Below, one piece after another: positions 1-6,300 of a stretch of 6,300 nt of DNA. This DNA comes from a virus (taxonomy: Duplodnaviria > Heunggongvirae > Uroviricota > Caudoviricetes): positions 1 through 6,300 of IMG/VR virus record IMGVR_UViG_648276671_000006; one strand, 5' to 3'. How positions within the stretch are numbered: position 1 is the first letter of the stretch; each line of letters begins with the position of its first letter. The notes beneath the pieces were generated by a model that had not been told where the DNA came from, searched no databases, and saw only the letters and a program-made list of their open reading frames with translations. A program made the translations under genes and the position numbers.

Positions 1-203
1 GCTGAAAATGGCAGTAATGATTTATCCTCCGCCAGCGACTGGCGAACGGCAGGAACGAACCCGGACGGCAGATTACGCATGCTTTTCGGTTCCGGCTCCA
101 CCAGTATCCGGGTATTGTGGAATACTGGCATGGATTCACGGCCCAGCTTAAGGACCACCAACCCAAGTTCTGGTACCAGAACAGGTCGAAGTAATACCCG
201 CAC
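1..203 (-). CDS. hypothetical protein, truncated at the left window edge (N-terminus MRVLLRPVLVPELGLVVLKLGRESMPVFHNTRILVEPEPKSMRNLPSGFVPAVRQSLAEDKSLLPFS...)
   Basis: Minus-strand frame is open from GTG at 203..201 to position 1. GGAGG (212..208) lies 4 nt upstream, and the TAA stop of the preceding gene (207..205) sits inside the same GGAGGTAACGTG junction. An alternative in-frame ATG at 275..273 has only a weak GGA upstream. Not in the ORF track because it runs off the window. Product not recognised. Confidence 0.45.
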   Translation of the reverse strand, partial: MRVLLRPVLVPELGLVVLKLGRESMPVFHNTRILVEPEPKSMRNLPSGFVPAVRQSLAEDKSLLPFS

Positions 204-204
204 G

Positions 205-450
205 TTACCTCCAGATCCGTTGCTGGTATGTGCGGGATGGGCGCGGTGGGCGTTCGGAATAAGGGAGCCTGACATAGATTATCCAGTGACGATAATCGAG
301 GCTGAGGGCTTTCTTAATCTCGTATCCGCGTCTGCGGTAGTTCTGAATCAGCCATTCGGCCTGTTCTTCAGTGCAGGGGTTATGCTGGAACCAGTCTGGT
401 TTGAATGCGTGAAAACGCCGCTCATTGTAACTCGTTGCTTTTTGCGTCAT
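205..450 (-). CDS. hypothetical small protein (81 aa, MTQKATSYNERRFHAFKPDWFQHNPCTEEQAEWLIQNYRRRGYEI...)
   Basis: Track ORF 205..462 trimmed to the ATG at 450..448, which has GAGGA (460..456) 5 nt upstream. The N-terminal 50 residues look protein-like. The C-terminal 30 residues (RLPYSERPPRPSRTYQQRIWR) are low-complexity, so the true end is uncertain. Confidence 0.55.
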   Translation of the reverse strand: MTQKATSYNERRFHAFKPDWFQHNPCTEEQAEWLIQNYRRRGYEIKKALSLDYRHWIIYVRLPYSERPPRPSRTYQQRIWR

Positions 451-479
451 AACAATCCTCATGACGCATCATTATCAGA

Positions 480-511
480 CCCCACAGTGTTCAGCTATGG
501 GGTTTTATTAT
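480..511 (+). terminator. terminator-like hairpin with a plus-strand T-run, in the gap between two minus-strand genes
   Basis: CCCCACAG (480..487) pairs with CTATGGGG (495..502) with one mismatch, loop TGTTCAG, followed by TTTTATTAT on the plus strand. On the minus strand the same hairpin has no U-run after it. Confidence 0.3.
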
Positions 512-529
512 CTCCACTAACGGTGTCCG

Positions 530-748
530 CTACAAGCCCCCGGACGAATACTGCTGCACAATATCACGCAATACTGCGTGGGACACAATGCGTTCGTCAT
601 TATGCAGAGGGCGCACCCTTAATACCTTCCCCATTCGTCTCCAGACAGCTCTTTTACTATCAGGCAAACTATCCATCTCAGCAACCACTGCGCCATCAGA
701 GCGGCGAACAACTTCATATTCATGCTCCGTCAATGCGTGACTTCTCAT
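530..748 (-). CDS. hypothetical small protein (72 aa, MRSHALTEHEYEVVRRSDGAVVAEMDSLPDSKRAVWRRMGKVLRVRPLHNDERIVSHAVLRDIVQQYSSGGL)
   Basis: ATG at 748..746 with a strong AGGAGGAA 7 nt upstream. Balanced charged/hydrophobic composition. Lies downstream of the hok terminator, so it is probably a separate transcription unit or needs read-through. Confidence 0.6.
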   Translation of the reverse strand: MRSHALTEHEYEVVRRSDGAVVAEMDSLPDSKRAVWRRMGKVLRVRPLHNDERIVSHAVLRDIVQQYSSGGL

Positions 749-930
749 ATCGTATTTCCTCCTGGATCGTTACCTTCAAAATAAATCTTTCTGATAAGAG
801 AAATATAACCACCTGATGTGATTATTTCATCACCAATAATTGAGTGTTTTTTGCCCGCTCTCAATGAAATTTTTTTACGTCTGTTATCTAATCAGAAAGT
901 AGCGTGTCTTTTAAACAGTCGTTGATTTTG

Positions 931-957
931 GCAATAAAAAACCCGCCGAAGCGGGTT
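931..957 (-). terminator. rho-independent terminator of the hok transcript
   Basis: On the minus strand: AACCCGC-UUCG-GCGGGUU (plus 940..957) followed by UUUUAUUGC. GC-rich 7-bp stem with a UUCG tetraloop and U-run. Confidence 0.7.
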
Positions 958-960
958 AAG

Positions 961-1018
961 TGCGGGTGCGTTGAGGATGCCTGACACATCAGAGGTGGCG
1001 AGGGATTTCTCCCTCGCC
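961..1018 (-). promoter_or_regulatory. hok mRNA 3' elements: fbi-like box (961..976) and a perfect 9-bp hairpin (997..1018)
   Basis: The transcript here reads CCUCAACGCACCCGCA, complementary with one bulged C to the predicted 5' end UGCGGGUGCUUGAGG (1330..1316). GGCGAGGGA/UCCCUCGCC hairpin with a 4-nt loop sits just 3' of the hok stop. Confidence 0.5.
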
Positions 1019-1025
1019 TGGTCTC

Positions 1026-1181
1026 TTACTCCTCAGGTTCGTAAGCTGTGAAGACAGCGACCTCCGTCTGGCCGGTTCGGATTCGTACCTCGCAGAGGTC
1101 TTTCCTCGTTACCAGTGCCGTCACTATGACGGTTAAACAGATGACGATCAGGGCGATTAACATCGCCTTTTGCTGCTTCAT
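1026..1181 (-). CDS. hok: Hok/Gef-family type I toxin (51 aa, MKQQKAMLIALIVICLTVIVTALVTRKDLCEVRIRTGQTEVAVFTAYEPEE)
   Basis: Single hydrophobic transmembrane segment followed by the conserved RKxLCE.R...GxxEVAAF-like tail of Hok/Gef peptides. From memory it is closest to chromosomal HokD/RelF. ATG at 1181..1179 with AAGGAG 9 nt upstream. The 70-aa track ORF 1026..1238 is an in-frame N-terminal extension. Confidence 0.85.
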   Translation of the reverse strand: MKQQKAMLIALIVICLTVIVTALVTRKDLCEVRIRTGQTEVAVFTAYEPEE

Positions 1182-1227
1182 AGCCTGCTTCTCCTTGACC
1201 TTTCGGTCCGTAAGAGGCAATCTATAT

Positions 1228-1290
1228 GTGACGAGCATATAGGGGCCTCACTTCGATTTATAGTCGGGTGGGGCTTTTCTCTATCTGCCT
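1228..1290 (+). ncRNA. expected position of a Sok-like antisense RNA (approximate, not firmly located)
   Basis: By analogy with hok/sok loci, the antisense RNA should cover the leader-ORF SD (plus 1246..1251) and ATG (1236..1238). Plus-strand signals are weak: TTGACC (1195..1200), 17 nt, CAATCT; possible 3' stem 1245..1251/1268..1274 followed by TTTTCTCT. It may be degenerate. Confidence 0.2.
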
Positions 1291-1315
1291 TTGGTGGCAT
1301 GCCCGAGACAGATAG

Positions 1316-1361
1316 CCTCAAGCACCCGCAGCAATTCTACTTAACTCTCCTTTTCCCGCAA
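1316..1361 (-). promoter_or_regulatory. hok promoter and 5' tac-like box
   Basis: On the minus strand: TTGCGG (1361..1356), 16 nt, TAGAAT (1339..1334). Predicted start near 1328, giving a transcript of about 390 nt whose first 15 nt are complementary to 976..961. Confidence 0.45.
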
Positions 1362-1448
1362 ACCGTTTTTATCCCCATCGGCAAATCGAATACACCACCA
1401 GCGCCACCGCCAGTGCGATTCCTACCGTTGTGAATGCTTCAGGGCAGG

Positions 1449-1730
1449 TCATCGCAAAACATCCTCCGCGCTTATCAGTTCGTTCCGCTTCAGGTAGTCC
1501 ATCGCCTTCTCCGGTAATTTGCAGTCTGGATTAGCTTTTTTCAGTTGACTGACCAGTCGTTTAACCCACATTGTTAATTCGCCAACTTGGTTACTGGATG
1601 CTAATGGATTGTCGGCTTTACCCAGAATGACAGCACAGCAGGCCTCTTTGAGAACCCAATCAACAGCATCTTTCCATACTCCTGTTTCGACTGGTGGATT
1701 CTCACGCTTTACCTGTTCATAAAAGCGCAC
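1449..1730 (-). CDS. hypothetical protein (93 aa, VRFYEQVKRENPPVETGVWKDAVDWVLKEACCAVILGKADNPLASSNQVGELTMWVKRLVSQLKKANPDCKLPEKAMDYLKRNELISAEDVLR)
   Basis: Protein-like composition. The only start available is GTG at 1730..1728, with no convincing SD; it overlaps the upstream gene by 22 nt, so translation may be coupled. No in-frame ATG before residue 54. Confidence 0.5.
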   Translation of the reverse strand: MRFYEQVKRENPPVETGVWKDAVDWVLKEACCAVILGKADNPLASSNQVGELTMWVKRLVSQLKKANPDCKLPEKAMDYLKRNELISAEDVLR

Positions 1731-1957
1731 GGCTTTAACCAGTCCTTACGCGCCTGCTCCGAAGGAAATATCCCATGCCCCGAACCATATACTGCACCAC
1801 TGACCACCAGCTCTTTCGCCAGAACTTCTATCAGGTGTCTGGTAGCTCCGGTTTCATCTTCCAGTTGCTTACGCGTTTTCCTTCCGTCTCTGCGTACCAG
1901 TTCCACAATACGCGCCTTCAGTTGTTCCCTGTATTCAGGTGTAAAAGCGTTTCCCAT
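1709..1957 (-). CDS. small winged-helix-like protein (82 aa, MGNAFTPEYREQLKARIVELVRRDGRKTRKQLEDETGATRHLIEVLAKELVVSGAVYGSGHGIFPSEQARKDWLKPCAFMNR)
   Basis: Track ORF 1709..2014 begins at a TTG. The ATG at 1957..1955 has GAGG 5 nt upstream, overlapping the stop of the previous gene. Contains a K.T..EL....G.S...V...L...L...G.V motif also found twice in the 256-aa neighbour. Confidence 0.6.
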   Translation of the reverse strand: MGNAFTPEYREQLKARIVELVRRDGRKTRKQLEDETGATRHLIEVLAKELVVSGAVYGSGHGIFPSEQARKDWLKPCAFMNR

Positions 1958-1964
1958 AAACGCC

Positions 1965-2735
1965 TCACTTTTCCGATACAACGCGACTGGTGGAATCGAC
2001 AATCTGTCGAACAATATCCCGGTGCTTGTTCAGCTCCCGTAGCGCGGCGCAGACACGCTCCCACTTCTGGACATGGCTTTTCGCCCGACGCAGTTCACGA
2101 TTTGCCATATGCAGCGATGGTAAAATCAGGTCATCCGCTCGAGTTTCGGTGAACGATGACAACGACTGCACAATGTCCGCCACAGTTTCTGTTTTAATTT
2201 CTTCCTGTATTGCAGCTTCCTGTACAGGTAACGCAACGCCGGCTGGCTGAGGAAAGGCTTTACCATCATTTTCCGTTACCAATGCGACTTTCGGCTTTAC
2301 TGGTAAATTCTCGCCCGGCATGCAGTAGCGAAATTTACCGTTCTGGTTTACGCGTGCCAGCCGCCCCGTTGCGGTTACTACCGCCAGTGTGGAAGCAACC
2401 TTGCGAGTGCTGACACCGAACTTACCCGCCAGTTCCTCACACGTTTTAGCTCCCTCCTGACCGATAAACTCAATCATCATGTCAGCGGTAACTTTTCGTT
2501 CGACCTCCCTGGTTAACACATCTTGTGTTTCAGATTGTGCTGGCTGCTCTTCGGCTCCCCCTGATTCACCTTCGCCAGCCACACGCCAGGTGTATGCACT
2601 TTTATCAACGAAGCCAGCCTTTTTCAGTTCCCACAGCTCCTTCAGCACTTCTTCACGACTGATATCAAGTCGCGTAGTCAGTTCTACCGACGTGGCTTTT
2701 CCCATTGCTTTCAGTGCGTCAAAAACAGTCTCCAT
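1965..2735 (-). CDS. hypothetical protein with two tandem winged-helix-like motifs and a helical C-terminal region (256 aa)
   Basis: ATG at 2735..2733 with GGGAGGA 5 nt upstream; 33-nt gap after the P-like stop. Motifs [32 protein letters not shown] and [33 protein letters not shown]. No Walker A/B or nuclease motifs seen. Confidence 0.8.
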
Positions 2736-2768
2736 AAATTTCCTCCCGGTAAAAAATCACTTCTCAAC

Positions 2769-3434
2769 TCAAACAAAACCAGCCGCTTTCCGGCGTTCAT
2801 ACTCCTGTTTCAGCAACTCAATTGGCGTTGGTCCCGACGGGCGTTTGGGTGCTGCCAGTTGCCGCCGTACGGGCGGAACGCTGAGGCCGTTGCCAACATG
2901 CTTTGCCCATTTCGTCAGCTGCCGTTCTGCAAGCCGTTTTAACTCCCCTTCGGTCATCTGGCATTCAATCCCCTTTGAACGCATCTCGAGGCAAATGTGA
3001 TACAGCACAGGCTGAGACCACGGGTATTTATCGCTTCCGTCGTATCGCCAGGACTCATTGCGCCAGCGTCGGTACTCCTCCATCACGCCATCTACCGTCA
3101 GACCAAATGGATTTGCCCCGCTCTCCGAAATCAGCGCCACAAACTCAGCCAGGTCCGGAGGCCATGTTTCACCCGCCCGGCAGCGGTCCATGCACTGGCG
3201 GCAGACCTGCCGGATTTGCTGCTCAGTCATCGCGCCAATCTGTGCAATCCAGAGCTTCGAAGGTGCGGACCCGTTCTTCTGGGTCCAGCGGTTCGAATAA
3301 ACCTCCCCCATGAGTTCCCACAGCTTCCACGCCGTTTCCGTCGCTGATAAATCCGTTTTCACGTTCCCACTGTTCACGTGCTGCCCGAATTTCCTGAACT
3401 GCCCGTGATGCGGTGCCACCTGGTGCTGCTGCAT
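2769..3434 (-). CDS. replication protein P-like helicase loader
   Basis: The C-terminal two thirds align by eye with lambda P ([18 protein letters not shown] vs ESYPWKSNAHYWLVTNLY; [13 protein letters not shown] vs TDAELRRKAADEL). Start is uncertain: ATG at 3434 has a G-rich SD but overlaps the O-like gene by 212 nt; internal ATGs at 3311 and 3230 (the latter an ATGACTGA overlap with the O-like stop) are alternatives. Confidence 0.7.
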
Positions 3435-4263
3435 GGCTCCCCCCCTTGCTGACTGGTTTAACCTGCGCCCTGACGTGATTTACGTGACGGGCAAATTTCT
3501 GCTCCCACTGAACCTGCGTGAAAACTTTTCCCTCCTCTGCCCAGTAATCCCGGAAGGCGGCAAGTTCAGCAGGTGTAAATTCCGGCTCCGGCAAAGCCAC
3601 TCCCCACAGTGCAGCCCGCCGTCGAAAATCCGGCGACGGATACCAGTCATCGGTCATCGGAAATTTTCCGATGCGTTCGCTCAGGCCATCCAGGAATGCA
3701 GGGGGCGTTGCCTGTGACGGCAAAACTTCCCTCTCACTGGTCGGAGCACTCTCGCGTGCGTTATGTATGGGGTTTAGATCTTTAGGTTCCTTTGGGTTCC
3801 GTGATCCGTTTTTGGGTGTCTTTGATGGAAAATTTGGGTGCCTTTGGTTATTTTCTATGCTGCAAAGAGTCCCGTTTTTGGGTCTGTTTTGTGCGGAAAC
3901 ACAACCGTTTTTGGTGCTGTTTTTATTAACAGTACCAATTTTACCCACCTTTAAAGACTCCCGTTTTTGGGTGTATTCAGGCTCGGCAACACTTTCTTCA
4001 ACACCGATAAGTTGGTACACCACAATTTGCTTTGTTCGACCTTTTCTCTCACCGGTATCAACAATTAACCCAATCTCCATCAGGTGCCGTAAGCTGTCCT
4101 GCACAGTTTTTTTGTTCAGTTCCGTTACTTCTGCCAGTGCAGATACAGACGGGTATGCACACAAATCGGCACCGCACATATCAGCAAGCCAGGTCAATAC
4201 TGACTTACTGGATGAACTGCCGGTTTTCACCCTTTTAGCCCATCGTAGTGCATCGATACTCAT
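3223..4263 (-). CDS. O-like replication initiator: N-terminal HTH domain, PKNG-repeat linker, DnaT-like C-terminal domain
   Basis: Track ORF 3223..4338 starts at TTG. The ATG at 4263..4261 has GAGG 5 nt upstream ([15 protein letters not shown]...). N-terminal region resembles phage replication-initiator HTH domains; [48 protein letters not shown] resembles the DnaT C-terminal domain. Iteron-like repeats lie inside the linker-coding segment. Confidence 0.8.
3783..3976. repeat. iteron-like direct repeats (CCGTTTTTGGGTG family), putative replication origin inside the initiator gene
   Basis: Near-identical copies at 3806..3818, 3872..3884, 3905..3916 and 3961..3973, plus degenerate TTTGGGT(T/G)CC copies at 3791..3800 and 3833..3842. 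An AT-rich stretch lies at 3917..3958. On the coding strand the repeats translate to recurring PKNG. Confidence 0.55.
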
Positions 4264-4786
4264 GCGAACCTCGACCAGGTATCTGTTGACCCGCAAAGCA
4301 ATGTTGGTATTGCTGACGATATGCACGTTTGAAAGCAATAGCTTTTTCTATAAGCTCGTCAGCCTCACGCTCCACAACAGTTGGATCTGCAAAAAGCAGC
4401 CCGGACTCCACCACATCACCATACTCTTTGTTTAACCCGGCGATCATGTACGTAATGCTTTTTCCGTCAGTAATTTCACAATACAACCTGAAATCACTGA
4501 TCCGGATAGCCTCCATAATTGCCGGAATCAGCGCCGTGAATTTTTCACGCTTATCCCTGGTGTCGATAGCTTTCCAGCGTTCAAATATCTTCACCCTGTT
4601 AACGCCAAGCGCCCGCTGATCAACCACGCCATCATCAAATGTGACACGTTGAACATCGATGTTCGGGCGCTCTTTCAGAGCCCAGAAGGCTTCTGTGATT
4701 AATATCGTCGCCTGCTCCTGCGTCATTCCCGGGCTGCATACCCAGGAGTCCAGAGCCTCACGAGCCTGCTCAGGAGTGAATATCAT
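4235..4786 (-). CDS. YdaT-like protein, positional equivalent of lambda CII (183 aa)
   Basis: Sits between the Cro-like gene and the initiator, as cII does in lambda. ATG at 4786..4784 overlaps the Cro-like stop by 17 nt. Assignment to the YdaT family is from memory of prophage YdaS/YdaT pairs, not from a search. Confidence 0.7.
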
Positions 4787-5063
4787 TGTTCACCGCCAGT
4801 GATTCATTTGTCATACACTTATTCCCACAAGGCAGCCCATCGGTTAGATTGGGGTAAATATCTGGGCGAAGCTCGTGGGGGGTGACTTGCCATTCAAGGA
4901 GCACACAAAGAGGAATGACCCGCTCAGCTGGTATTGATTTATTGGCAAACCATTTTCCAACCCCTTGCCCACTAATCCCAAAGCGTTCTCCAATCTCGAC
5001 AAAGGAAAAGTTTTTTTTAATCTTGTCTCGTAGATCGTTTAGTTTTTGATGTTTTTTAGCCAC
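4770..5063 (-). CDS. Cro/YdaS-like HTH regulator (97 aa from the GTG start)
   Basis: HTH FVEIGERFGISGQGVGKWFANKSIPAERV and an ELRPD motif as in YdaS-type Cro proteins. Track ORF 4770..5162 would leave only 11 nt to the divergent repressor. GTG at 5063..5061 has a near-consensus SD GAGGTGAGG (5078..5070). ATG at 5087 is an alternative, possibly leaderless. Confidence 0.7.
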   Translation of the reverse strand: MAKKHQKLNDLRDKIKKNFSFVEIGERFGISGQGVGKWFANKSIPAERVIPLCVLLEWQVTPHELRPDIYPNLTDGLPCGNKCMTNESLAVNNDIHS

Positions 5064-5173
5064 ACAACACCTCACCTCTTGGTTCATCACTGGGAGCATA
5101 ACAGGCGAAAGTTTACGTTTCAAGAACAAGGAAACAAATAGTTGTACTGATAATCGAAACATTTGGTTGTAAA
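5064..5173. promoter_or_regulatory. divergent promoter/operator region of the immunity switch
   Basis: Three operator-like sites about 25 bp apart: GAAAGTTTACGTTTC (5107..5121, palindromic GAAA-N7-TTTC), GAAACAAATAGTTGTAC (5131..5147) and GAAACATTTGGTTGTAA (5156..5172). Leftward promoter TTGAAA (5123..5118), 17 nt, TATGCT (5100..5095). Rightward promoter CTGATA (5147..5152), 17 nt, TAAAAT (5170..5175). Confidence 0.55.
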
Positions 5174-5599
5174 ATGCAGGCTATGAACGATACCGTTAAC
5201 AATGTTTTTGCAAAAAGAATCCAGCAAGTGATGGATGAAAATGGCTGGAATAAGTCAGACCTGGCTAAGCGGGTCATGTTATCTCACACCGCGGTTCAGA
5301 ATTGGGCAAAAGGCATCAGCGTAGCCAGCGGTGTAAGATTAAAAAGGCTCGCAGCTGTAACAGGAAAGCCTGAGTACTGGTTTTTTATGGATCGGGATGC
5401 AGGAGGCGATGAAAATCACCAAGATATACCAATACCCATTGTGCTTGATGACAAAGAGAAAGCCCTGCTCTCAATTTTCAATCAAATGCCAGAAGCAGAA
5501 AAGTTACGCCTAATTATCCATGCTAAGGAAGTCCTGAGAGAGCTGGAACTGCTTAAGAGCGATGTTTTCGATATTATCAACGATCAATTAAAACCATAG
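5174..5599 (+). CDS. DicA-like HTH (XRE-family) prophage repressor, 141 aa
   Basis: N-terminal HTH SDLAKRVMLSHTAVQNWAKG; the C-terminal segment LDDKEKALLSIFNQMPEAEKLRLIIHAKEV resembles the DicA C-terminal region. No peptidase S24 (LexA-like) domain. Divergent from the Cro-like gene. The start may instead be the ATG at 5183, because the -10 TAAAAT overlaps the first ATG. Confidence 0.85.
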   Translation: MQAMNDTVNNVFAKRIQQVMDENGWNKSDLAKRVMLSHTAVQNWAKGISVASGVRLKRLAAVTGKPEYWFFMDRDAGGDENHQDIPIPIVLDDKEKALLSIFNQMPEAEKLRLIIHAKEVLRELELLKSDVFDIINDQLKP

Positions 5600-5624
5600 C
5601 TAACAAACCATCCACACATCAGAC

Positions 5625-5652
5625 AAAAAGCACCTTTCTGGTGCTTTTTTTT
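5625..5652 (+). terminator. rho-independent terminator after the repressor gene
   Basis: AAAAAGCACC-TTTCT-GGTGCTTTTT: perfect 10-bp stem, 5-nt loop, then a T-run to 5652. The A-run before the stem makes it potentially bidirectional. Confidence 0.7.
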
Positions 5653-5661
5653 GCCCAGAAA

Positions 5662-5712
5662 CGAAATTTTCTATTTCGCACACTTTACACGCGAAAGTTA
5701 TTGTTGCACAAT
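5662..5712 (+). promoter_or_regulatory. second operator-bearing promoter (PL-like) for the rightward ydfA-like operon
   Basis: GAAATTTTCTATTTC (5663..5677) is a second GAAA-N7-TTTC palindrome. GAAAGTTATTGTTGCAC (5693..5709) matches 12 of 17 positions of the 5131..5147 site. Candidate promoter TTTACA (5684..5689), 17 nt, CACAAT (5707..5712). Confidence 0.35.
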
Positions 5713-5790
5713 CCACACCATCAACAACGAAACGCATCGTTGTCAGGCTAAAGTTCCGCTACCCCGGCGTTAAGGGGAAATGAGGTCAAC

Positions 5791-5943
5791 ATGGATACTA
5801 TCGATCTTGGCAACAACGAATCTCTGGTGTACGGCGTGTTTCCCAACCAGGACGGCACGTTCACCGCGATGACGTATACCAAAAGCAAAACATTTAAAAC
5901 CGAAGCTGGCGCGCGTCGCTGGTTAGCCAGAAACACTGACTGA
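5791..5943 (+). CDS. YdfA-like small protein (50 aa, MDTIDLGNNESLVYGVFPNQDGTFTAMTYTKSKTFKTEAGARRWLARNTD)
   Basis: Below the ORF-track length cutoff. ATG at 5791 with GAGG 5 nt upstream; stop TGA at 5941..5943. Its position immediately downstream of a DicA-like repressor matches the dicA-ydfA arrangement of the Qin prophage. Sequence identity to YdfA is from uncertain memory. Confidence 0.6.
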   Translation: MDTIDLGNNESLVYGVFPNQDGTFTAMTYTKSKTFKTEAGARRWLARNTD

Positions 5944-5954
5944 TGAGGTTGACG

Positions 5955-6300
5955 ATGGAATTTAAAGATTTACCAAAAGAAATCCAGTCCATTGCTGCAA
6001 CGACACTTAGTGATAGCCTGGTGGAAATTAACCCGGCATACATCAAAAAGGAAACCATCGATAATTTGGTTCGTAATGTGCGCGATGCGTTTACCGGATT
6101 GTACTCCGTTTCGGTAACAAACAACCAGAATACTGAAGAAGCTGCAAAGCGGAATGCCTCGGTGACGGGTTTTCATGTCGAGGAAAAGTATTCAAAAAAG
6201 AATTCTGGAAAACTGCAAAAAAATTGCAGAGCGAGAACTGTCATCTCCTGCGGCAAATCGGTTCTTTCTATGAGGAAAGTTATTCAGATGACACAGGATT
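5955..6300 (+). CDS. hypothetical protein, truncated at the right window edge (MEFKDLPKEIQSIAATTLSDSLVEINPAYIKKETIDNLVRNVRDAFTGLYSVSVTNNQNTEEAAKRNASVTGFHVEEKYSKK...)
   Basis: ATG at 5955 with GAGG 6 nt upstream, 11 nt after the ydfA-like stop. The frame stays open to position 6300. The first 80 residues look protein-like; the last 35 are lysine/serine-rich and contain a perfect hairpin, so the real gene may end earlier in other strains. Confidence 0.4.
   Translation, partial: MEFKDLPKEIQSIAATTLSDSLVEINPAYIKKETIDNLVRNVRDAFTGLYSVSVTNNQNTEEAAKRNASVTGFHVEEKYSKKNSGKLQKNCRARTVISCGKSVLSMRKVIQMTQD

Follow-up and report, generated by a model that had tools for sequence, protein, structure and literature searches.

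Iteron-like repeats within the initiator gene of a Rac-like/lambdoid prophage as the probable iteron part of a lambda-style replication origin

Introduction

Iterons that lie inside the gene of the replication initiator itself are a familiar feature of lambdoid phages. Phage lambda (four iterons in gene O), the Shiga toxin (Stx) phages 933W and P27 (6 iterons), P22 (gene 18) and phage L (gene 18, six 11-bp repeats) each carry intragenic iterons of their own, and in lambdoid initiators the iteron number varies, with extra iterons adding residues to the protein (PMC7466680, PMC8022706). Here, we describe an array of this kind at 3779-3977 of a 6,300-nucleotide DNA stretch, hereafter called the window, which comprises positions 1 to 6,300 of the IMG/VR virus record IMGVR_UViG_648276671_000006 (Caudoviricetes). 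The array lies within the gene of a replication initiator with a winged-helix N-terminal domain (N-domain) and a DnaT-like C-terminal domain (C-domain), and it is in all probability the iteron part of a prophage replication origin that, in the manner of lambda, sits inside the initiator gene. A sequence-only reading of the window had proposed a lambda-style iteron array, serving the gene's own product and placed in its linker-coding region, and the comparative evidence presented below supports that proposal. The repeats, their conservation at the DNA level, the domain architecture of the initiator and the modular inheritance of its parts were all established by computation.

Several other described systems are close to this locus. 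Initiators of the phiV10/epsilon15 type (phrog_1032) have the same domains, the same gene pair and 6-7 copies of the same repeat core in the linker. They differ in the N-domain, which in phiV10 is 47% identical over amino acids (aa) 1-95 (39% by tblastn over the 169-aa N-domain plus linker), and in the copies, which are 18 or 24 bp apart and all in one frame. The domesticated DopC/DopE pair, in which an HTH_36 plus DnaT_C protein is accompanied by a P-like protein, is reported to have no iteron-like sequences in dopC, and a chromosomal helicase-loading role has been proposed for it (Brezellec et al. 2017, PMC5509034). The two-gene architecture and the domains are the same in the window, which differs in having the array and in being part of a prophage. 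YdaU/YdaV of the Rac prophage share with the window the DnaT-like C-terminal half (88% aa identity), the P-like partner and the ydaS/ydaT operon context, but YdaU has a DUF1376 N-domain and there is no CCCAAAAACGG array. Iteron plasmids (RepA, pi, TrfA, RepE) also combine winged-helix initiators with direct-repeat arrays. Contacts of such initiators with single-stranded DNA (ssDNA) have been reported (PMC10602881), and here a contact of this kind is suggested by the DnaT-like domain. However, plasmid iterons are intergenic and are usually 17-22 bp monomer sites without dyad symmetry, and with Foldseek the plasmid initiators gave no sequence or fold match to the window N-domain beyond the generic winged helix.

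The repeat array

The repeat reads CCGTTTTTGG(G)TG on the plus strand of the window and CACCCAAAAACGG on the coding (minus) strand, and four copies of it lie within 3806-3977, inside the initiator gene. When CCGTTTTTGGKTG is searched with up to two mismatches, the whole window yields four matches, all on the plus strand (3806-3818, 3872-3884, 3905-3917 and 3961-3973); shuffled windows yield 0.53 on average and none of 200 reached four. The pattern AA-N5-CCRAAAWYGG finds only the same four strong sites (0 of 200 shuffles). Five of the six window copies of TTTGGGT are found within 3791-3972, a total of six being reached in 1 of 200 shuffles. Both the four strong copies and the degenerate TTTGGGT copies named in the sequence-only reading are therefore present, the former at a non-random number. 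Altogether, the array consists of four strong and three degenerate units, all in one orientation (Table 1), and the unit spacing is irregular (56, 33, 44, 22 and 20 bp). Helical phasing is suggestive only, since the window spacings of 56, 33, 44 and 22 bp are near multiples of 11 and the spacings of other lineages are 17-18 or 24 bp. The coding strand of the array is 42% A, which is the 99.8th percentile of 195-nt stretches on either strand of the window.

The individual units differ in their state of preservation. At the position of iteron 3, most Escherichia coli relatives carry ACCGAAAACGG. The variant unit position reads CCCAAATTTTCC in the window and (A/C)CCGTTTTT(C/T)CC in the Scandinavium and Kluyvera relatives, the latter resembling the core in inverted orientation; judging from this alignment, the variant position may be a conserved, oppositely oriented or half-site unit. 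A scan of the array against Rfam at gathering thresholds gave no match. A programmed -1 frameshift site at CCC AAA AAC was also considered and rejected by inspection, as the heptamer is C-AAA-AAC and not A-AAA-AAC, and the copies occur in all frames.

The resemblance to the lambda origin extends to several features. In both cases, direct repeats lie in the initiator reading frame just after the DNA-binding N-domain (lambda O codons 117-145, here 97-158), the units are dyads in which an A-tract centre separates a C-rich from a G-rich arm (lambda TCCCTCAAAACGAGGGA, here CCCAAAAACGGG) and are read in different frames, a P-like loader gene follows directly downstream, and the array is situated in the early rightward operon. 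On the other hand, the unit sequences differ, the arms are spaced as CCC-N9-GGG in lambda and CCC-N6-GGG here, the 20-24 bp spacing of the lambda units contrasts with the irregular spacing in the window, the AT-rich tract that flanks the lambda array has no counterpart here, and the lambda C-domain is O-type and not DnaT-like.

Conservation of the repeat as DNA

Genes of initiators with related N-domains were collected and reduced to 15 lineages with less than 80% N-domain identity. Scans of viral contigs gave mostly near-identical relatives, a scan of genome contigs gave 13 loci, and a protein search with the N-domain alone gave fragments only. The core CC(C)(A/G)AAAACGG is present in 12 of the 15 lineages, with 3-7 copies in each, beginning at most about 30 nt after the end of the N-domain. 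These twelve are the window and its E. coli relatives, Scandinavium/Enterobacter, Kluyvera, the Edwardsiella phages EPP-1 and GF-2, a Plesiomonas metagenome-assembled genome (MAG), phiV10, the Acinetobacter phages LZ35 and Ab105-2phi, Vibrio phage Her, EBPR podovirus 1 and Burkholderia phage Bcep176. The initiators that share this core have N-domains that are just 35-75% identical. Furthermore, the array is the only cluster of the motif in the 2.8-6.3 kb examined per lineage. The core occurs 53 times in 3.8 kb of linker DNA, against 7 times in the remaining 37.7 kb of these loci with both strands counted, which corresponds to 13.8 against 0.09 copies per kb per strand, an approximately 150-fold enrichment in the linker. 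Its orientation is also fixed to a large extent, with 53 forward and 4 reverse copies.

The sequence-only reading had further noted that the array doubles as a PKNG peptide repeat in the linker. Three of the four strong copies do read TKNG, PKNG and PKNG, but the copy at 3961-3973 reads TQKR and the degenerate one at 3827-3840 reads HPNFP. Copies are thus read in three frames, and therefore the repeat is primarily one of DNA, the PKNG repeat being real but partial. Across the relatives, core copies occupy at least two reading frames in 9 of the 12 lineages, giving PKNG, TQKR or VPKTE readings; in EBPR podovirus 1 alone, the core is read as STKNG, SQKRD, VPKTE, SPENG and VPKSG. Codon choice was compared between [PT][KE]NG peptide matches, picked without reference to the DNA, and the remainder of the same genes as background. 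Within the motif, proline is encoded by CCC in 18 of 18 cases (8 of 110 elsewhere, 7%), lysine by AAA in 14 of 14 (125 of 226 elsewhere), glutamate by GAA in 10 of 10 (124 of 210 elsewhere) and asparagine by AAC in 24 of 24 (68 of 121 elsewhere, 56%). These frozen synonymous sites hold even in the AT-rich Acinetobacter phages. Moreover, a position matrix built from 55 distinct copies, whose flank positions are not imposed by the search pattern, reveals flanks that are conserved whatever the frame: A at -6 in 55 of 55 copies, A at -5 in 50, T at +16 in 39 and T at +17 in 32. The best correlation of the matrix with its own reverse complement is 0.53, centred between CC and GG. As judged from the aligned copies, the repeat unit is a dyad of about 24 bp, AA-N5-CC-(A/G)AAAAC-GG-N5-TT.

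These data bear directly on the possibility that selection acts on the protein, where the (P/T)(K/E)NG linker repeat would have a role of its own, for example in forming turns or in binding a partner, with the DNA repeat as a mere consequence. All copies are in one frame in phiV10, LZ35 and Ab105-2phi, and PKNG or PENG is the commonest core reading overall, as such an explanation would have it. Against it stand the different frames of the same core in most lineages, the invariance of codons that are atypical for these genes (CCC and AAC), the frame-independent conservation of the AA/TT flanks, the predicted disorder of the segment and the absence of iteron-like repeats reported for the domesticated HTH_36 plus DnaT_C proteins (DopC; PMC5509034). 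Protein-level selection is accordingly very unlikely to be the source of the repeat. It is instead strongly supported, by frames and synonymous sites alike, that the repeat is selected as DNA and not as peptide, and that the (P/T)KNG, TQKR and HPNF peptides are by-products tolerated by a linker predicted to be disordered. The earlier suggestion that the DNA repeat forces the peptide repeat on the linker was, to this extent, borne out.

A functionless product of slippage or low complexity in a tolerant linker would also leave a repeat at this place. A variant with a 66-bp deletion exists and the copy number varies by lineage, both of which would suit a neutral origin. Nevertheless, the 11-nt core and the 24-bp architecture are kept across hosts of different orders, where synonymous divergence elsewhere is saturated, and neither the 150-fold enrichment nor the fixed orientation would be expected of it. 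This explanation is the least credible of those considered.

Some relatives carry the repeat in a strikingly regular form. Vibrio phage Her (locus 1859-1978) has a perfect head-to-tail array of 24 bp x 4-5, and Ab105-2phi (locus 1486-1560) one of 18 bp x 4; the exact peptide repeats NRPENGTL and GTEI arise from the tandem arrays in Her/Ab105-2phi. Some cores of the tandem-array relatives (ACCGAAAACGGT) are identical to binding sites of papillomavirus E2; the likeness, a dimer on ACC-N6-GGT with an A-tract spacer, is no more than an analogy. A literature search for the core sequence returned unrelated matches only, notably these E2 sites, and a search for the origins of phiV10 or epsilon15 returned nothing.

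Domains and family of the initiator protein

The initiator was modelled with AlphaFold2 from an alignment of 23 homologues. In the model, the N-domain consists of helices in residues 3-64 followed by a beta-hairpin (67-74/80-85), with a predicted local distance difference test (pLDDT) score of 70-86, and the wing strands carry the family-invariant motif DTGERKGRT (aa 69-77). A confident three-helix C-domain occupies aa 200-266. Between them, aa 90-195 are modelled without structure at pLDDT below 50, and the array is therefore predicted to encode a disordered linker (aa 97-160). The array is thus located as the sequence-only reading had placed it, between the segment for an N-terminal helix-turn-helix and that for a DnaT-like C-domain. 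The N-terminal match is weak: HTH_36 (PF13730) scores 21.2 bits on aa 36-67 of the window protein, below the gathering cut-off of 25 bits, and all eight compared relatives pass. By Foldseek, the N-domain has generic winged-helix matches only.

The C-domain is identified with greater certainty. Pfam DnaT (PF17948) matches aa 201-267 with E=2.9e-18 (65.8 bits against a cut-off of 25), and Foldseek retrieves the DnaT structures 6AEQ and 4OU6 (the latter in complex with dT10) at 52-59% identity and TM-scores of 0.87-0.91. The DnaT-type C-terminus that had been proposed is hence confirmed. It had been set against the lambda-O type, but it is not unusual: the combination of HTH_36 and DnaT_C with a P-like loader is already annotated in phiV10 and has been described (PMC5509034). 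The equivalog model for DnaT itself (NF002770) gives 89 bits against a cut-off of 201 and is matched only at model positions 84-156; the initiator is thus a protein distinct from DnaT that has one domain in common with it. The protein as a whole belongs with phrog_1032 ('replication initiation protein'), which it matches over aa 1-298 with E=3.8e-88, compared with E=2.1e-107 for phiV10 gp43.

A direct homology to lambda O was examined and discarded, as BLASTP gave E=0.009 in a single comparison and hhalign of the N-domain against lambda O a probability of 2%. Only transitive PHROG links remain: phrog_678 and phrog_345 ('O-like') are each matched by both proteins, in one and the same region of the profile.

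Coupling of the array to the N-domain

Farther N-domain homologues with different wings bear different repeats at the same position. There, a Desulfovibrionaceae genome has CCCCCGAAC units, a Zoogloeaceae MAG has GTGCCAAAAGTGGCAC, Moraxella Mcat8 has an 84-bp compound repeat and Acinetobacter MD-2021a has AACAGTNCCAACAANGGNAC; a Methylophilaceae homologue also carries a different repeat. The genes neighbouring the array, by comparison, differ among the lineages, being P-like, DnaB-like or DUF6475, with YdaT present or not, so that the winged-helix N-domain is the only constant partner of the array.

It may be asked whether the repeats are targets not of the initiator but of some other protein, such as a nucleoid protein of the host or the YdaT/cII-like regulator encoded next to the initiator. 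Nucleoid proteins commonly target phased DNA that is rich in A-tracts, and ydaT lies directly upstream of the initiator gene. However, the winged-helix N-domain alone always accompanies the array, in Enterobacteriaceae, Vibrio, Acinetobacter, Burkholderia and EBPR (enhanced biological phosphorus removal) phages, and the repeat sequence changes with the wing of that domain. Binding of another protein in place of the initiator is consequently improbable in the extreme, on a par with selection for the peptide.

Genetic exchange points to the same coupling. In the comparison with Rac-SA53 ydaU, a mosaic junction is found just past the last unit (Table 1). Past the junction, in the direction of the gene, DNA identity is 93%, and before it, where the N-domain and the array are encoded, there is no similarity. 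YdaU of Rac-SA53 has DUF1376 as its N-domain, its gene lacks an array of this kind, and over the C-terminal 188 aa it is 88% identical to the window protein. In Edwardsiella phage EPP-1, an N-domain that is 72% identical and the same iterons are fused to a Phg_2220_C C-terminus, with a P-like gene downstream; the Phg_2220_C domain has been assigned to lambda O by Brezellec et al. (PMC5509034). The P-like partner is common to all three domain combinations, namely those of the window initiator, Rac YdaU and EPP-1. On this evidence, the N-domain and the array are exchanged as one module.

The number of repeats changes as well. Homologous initiator genes carry 3-7 copies depending on the lineage. 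Among 54 distinct close E. coli relatives, no indels were found in the array. Nonetheless, two relatives of 324 aa are without 22 residues of the window protein, and in the encoding contig, of E. coli GCA_025675965.1 (locus 1764-1950), an exact 66-bp in-frame deletion, with its ends in the cores at 3872-3884 and 3806-3818, removes one strong and one variant unit and leaves one hybrid unit. A deletion with such ends is the expected product of recombination between iterons, and this natural allele parallels the differences in iteron number among lambdoid phages (PMC7466680). The third unit of the allele carries ACCGAAAATGG.

The AT-rich stretch

An AT-rich 40-bp stretch had been counted among the origin elements by the sequence-only reading. 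Such a stretch does exist at 3920-3959 (72% AT, which ranks at the 98.8th percentile among the window's 40-mers; no other 40-mer of the gene is less stable), but it is not a separate element. It lies between units 1 and 3 in gene order (3918-3960) and coincides for the most part with the decayed iteron position at 3928-3951, where the window has AAAGGTGGGTAAAATTGGTACTGTT and EPP-1 has AAAGACACCCAAAAACGGTGCTGTT. Because this position aligns with an intact unit in the EPP-1, Plesiomonas, Scandinavium and Kluyvera relatives, the stretch is largely a decayed copy of the repeat. Being an iteron decayed within the array and lacking positional conservation, it is not accepted as a lambda-like unwinding element.

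Proposed mechanism and weighing of the evidence

By analogy with lambda, we infer a sequence of events in which initiator binding, the dimer stoichiometry, the site of unwinding and the origin activity itself are all extrapolated from the better-studied system. The winged-helix N-domain of the gene's own product would bind each unit, probably as a dimer, and the bound dimers would wrap or bend the A-tract DNA into an O-some-like nucleoprotein complex. The DnaT-like C-domain would then bind ssDNA at the opened origin and/or contact the P-like protein, which in turn would bring the host DnaB. Rightward early transcription (cro-like gene, ydaT, initiator, P) would run through the site.

Several observations weigh against an origin of this type. 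A lambda-like AT-rich tract flanking the array was not found, the DNA past the last unit (3700-3780) being of average composition, and the position of the most AT-rich 40-mer is not conserved across lineages. The window N-domain has no match to PF04492 (Phage_rep_O) or TIGR01610 (phage_O_Nterm), both of which lambda O matches, and the hhalign value given above makes direct homology to lambda O weak. Among the 54 close E. coli relatives, polymorphism in the cores is not clearly below that in the spacers (9 of 66 against 26 of 130 sites), a comparison that is uninformative because divergence is too low. The literature search found no paper that describes this iteron sequence or family in a phage. 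Additionally, the prophage may be defective, and the origin possibly a relic in this host.

The lack of a flanking unwinding element also speaks for a different use of the array, in which it would bind the initiator for copy-number control or autoregulation (titration, handcuffing or a transcription roadblock) while the true origin lies elsewhere in the prophage. Plasmid iterons serve both initiation and control, which likewise favours this idea. It is countered by the fact that, in all lambdoid systems characterised so far, the iterons inside the initiator gene constitute the origin (PMC7466680, PMC8022706), by the confinement of the motif cluster to this one place in the DNA examined for each lineage, and by the A-richness of the coding strand, in view of which melting within the array itself is possible. 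A purely regulatory array is on balance unlikely, though less so than the other alternatives, and a lambda-style origin embedded in the initiator gene is the reading we retain.

Gene neighbourhood and prophage context

The window represents that part of a Rac-like/lambdoid prophage which governs immunity and replication. Its genes are a cI-like repressor (5174-5599, plus strand) and then, on the minus strand, YdaS/Cro-like, YdaT (4235-4786), the initiator, the lambda-P-like protein, DUF1627 and DUF977. The P-like gene adjoins the 3' end of the initiator gene with an overlap of 8 nt. Its reading frame (2769-3434, minus strand) is open for 221 codons, overlapping the initiator 3' end by 212 nt; the start at the ATG at 3230 is that of the RefSeq relatives, which gives the 8-nt overlap, and other gene callers place the start differently.

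Table 1. Features of the initiator locus in the window
Feature	Position (nt)	Strand	Basis or remark
Replication initiator gene, 346 aa	3223..4263	-	Open reading frame list; RefSeq relatives annotated with the same ends; phrog_1032; Pfam DnaT
Winged-helix N-domain coding region, aa 1-89	3997..4263	-	AlphaFold2 model; Foldseek; HTH_36
Iteron 1, 24-bp unit AATACACCCAAAAACGGGAGTCTT, read YTQKRES	3954..3977	-	Frame unlike that of the other strong copies
Decayed iteron position, AAAGGTGGGTAAAATTGGTACTGTT region	3928..3951	-	Aligns with intact CCCAAAAACGG units in EPP-1, Plesiomonas, Scandinavium and Kluyvera relatives
Iteron 3, AACAGCACCAAAAACGGTTGTGTT, read TKNG	3898..3921	-	
Iteron 4, AACAGACCCAAAAACGGGACTCTT, read PKNG	3865..3888	-	
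Variant unit, core CACCCAAATTTTCC, third-frame reading HPNFP	3821..3844	-	Variant position also seen in relatives
Iteron 6, AAGACACCCAAAAACGGATCACGG, read PKNG	3799..3822	-	
Short remnant unit, AACCCAAAGGAACC, last TTTGGGT copy	3779..3802	-	
Mosaic junction, about 3756, just past the last unit	3756..3757	.	Comparison with Rac-SA53 ydaU
DnaT-like ssDNA-binding three-helix domain coding region, aa 201-267	3463..3663	-	PF17948; Foldseek
Lambda-P-like helicase-loader gene	2769..3230	-	PF06992 (E=5.6e-16); phrog_109 'P-like helicase loader'; RefSeq annotation of relatives

The initiator gene is 93-94% identical in DNA to the genes of 'PPompW' phages and of many E. coli chromosomes. Among 5426 complete E. 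coli genomes, 1254 have at least a partial match and 907 match at least 80% of the gene. The part encoding the N-domain and the array is matched in only 909 genomes, compared with the 1254 in which the whole-gene query is matched at least in part, and up to 4 copies of this module are found per genome.

Two further observations concern the remainder of the window. A hok/sok-type type I toxin-antitoxin locus is present at 1026-1327 (minus strand), comprising a Hok/gef reading frame (PF01848, E=2.9e-23) with a Mok-like N-terminal extension and the sok antisense RNA family RF01794 (108 bits at 1179-1327). The DUF977 homologue (1709-2014, minus strand) has 101 aa from a TTG start and about 82 aa from the first ATG, and the genes of its relatives encode 138 aa; an unrelated 93-aa reading frame follows this short homologue, which suggests another mosaic junction or a truncation.

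Significance

The array extends the lambda paradigm to another initiator family and implies no new mechanism. The modest new point, as far as the compared genes tell, is that one iteron core is common to very divergent phages, whereas the iteron sequences of other lambdoid initiators are type-specific. A much bolder extension, to which we give little credence, is that a single origin code, AA-N5-CCRAAAACGG-N5-TT read by the wing DTGERKG(R/A)T, is shared nearly unchanged by temperate and virulent phages of Enterobacteriaceae, Vibrio, Acinetobacter, Burkholderia and Accumulibacter-associated communities, at variance with the classic picture of type-specific pairs of O and iteron. If such a code were real, cross-talk could arise among unrelated prophages of one host or with superinfecting phages, the initiator of one firing, titrating or blocking the origin of another. 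The route of helicase loading would then be set by the interchangeable C-termini (DnaT-like, O-like and others), and the DnaT-like domain might make direct contact with the unwound, A-rich strand.

At a more immediate level, the array shows where replication probably starts in a class of E. coli prophages that is very common, being carried by about 900 of the 5426 complete genomes, including those of O157, O145 and O111 Shiga toxin-producing E. coli (STEC) and PPompW-type elements beside Stx2a phages. It does likewise for many phages in which the initiator bears no annotation beyond 'DnaT-like ssDNA-binding' or 'primosomal protein', and it provides a simple sequence signature for origin prediction in this initiator family. 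Moreover, the odd PKNG-type peptide repeats in these proteins emerge as a footprint of selection at the DNA level, which is relevant both to annotation and to the interpretation of linker variation.

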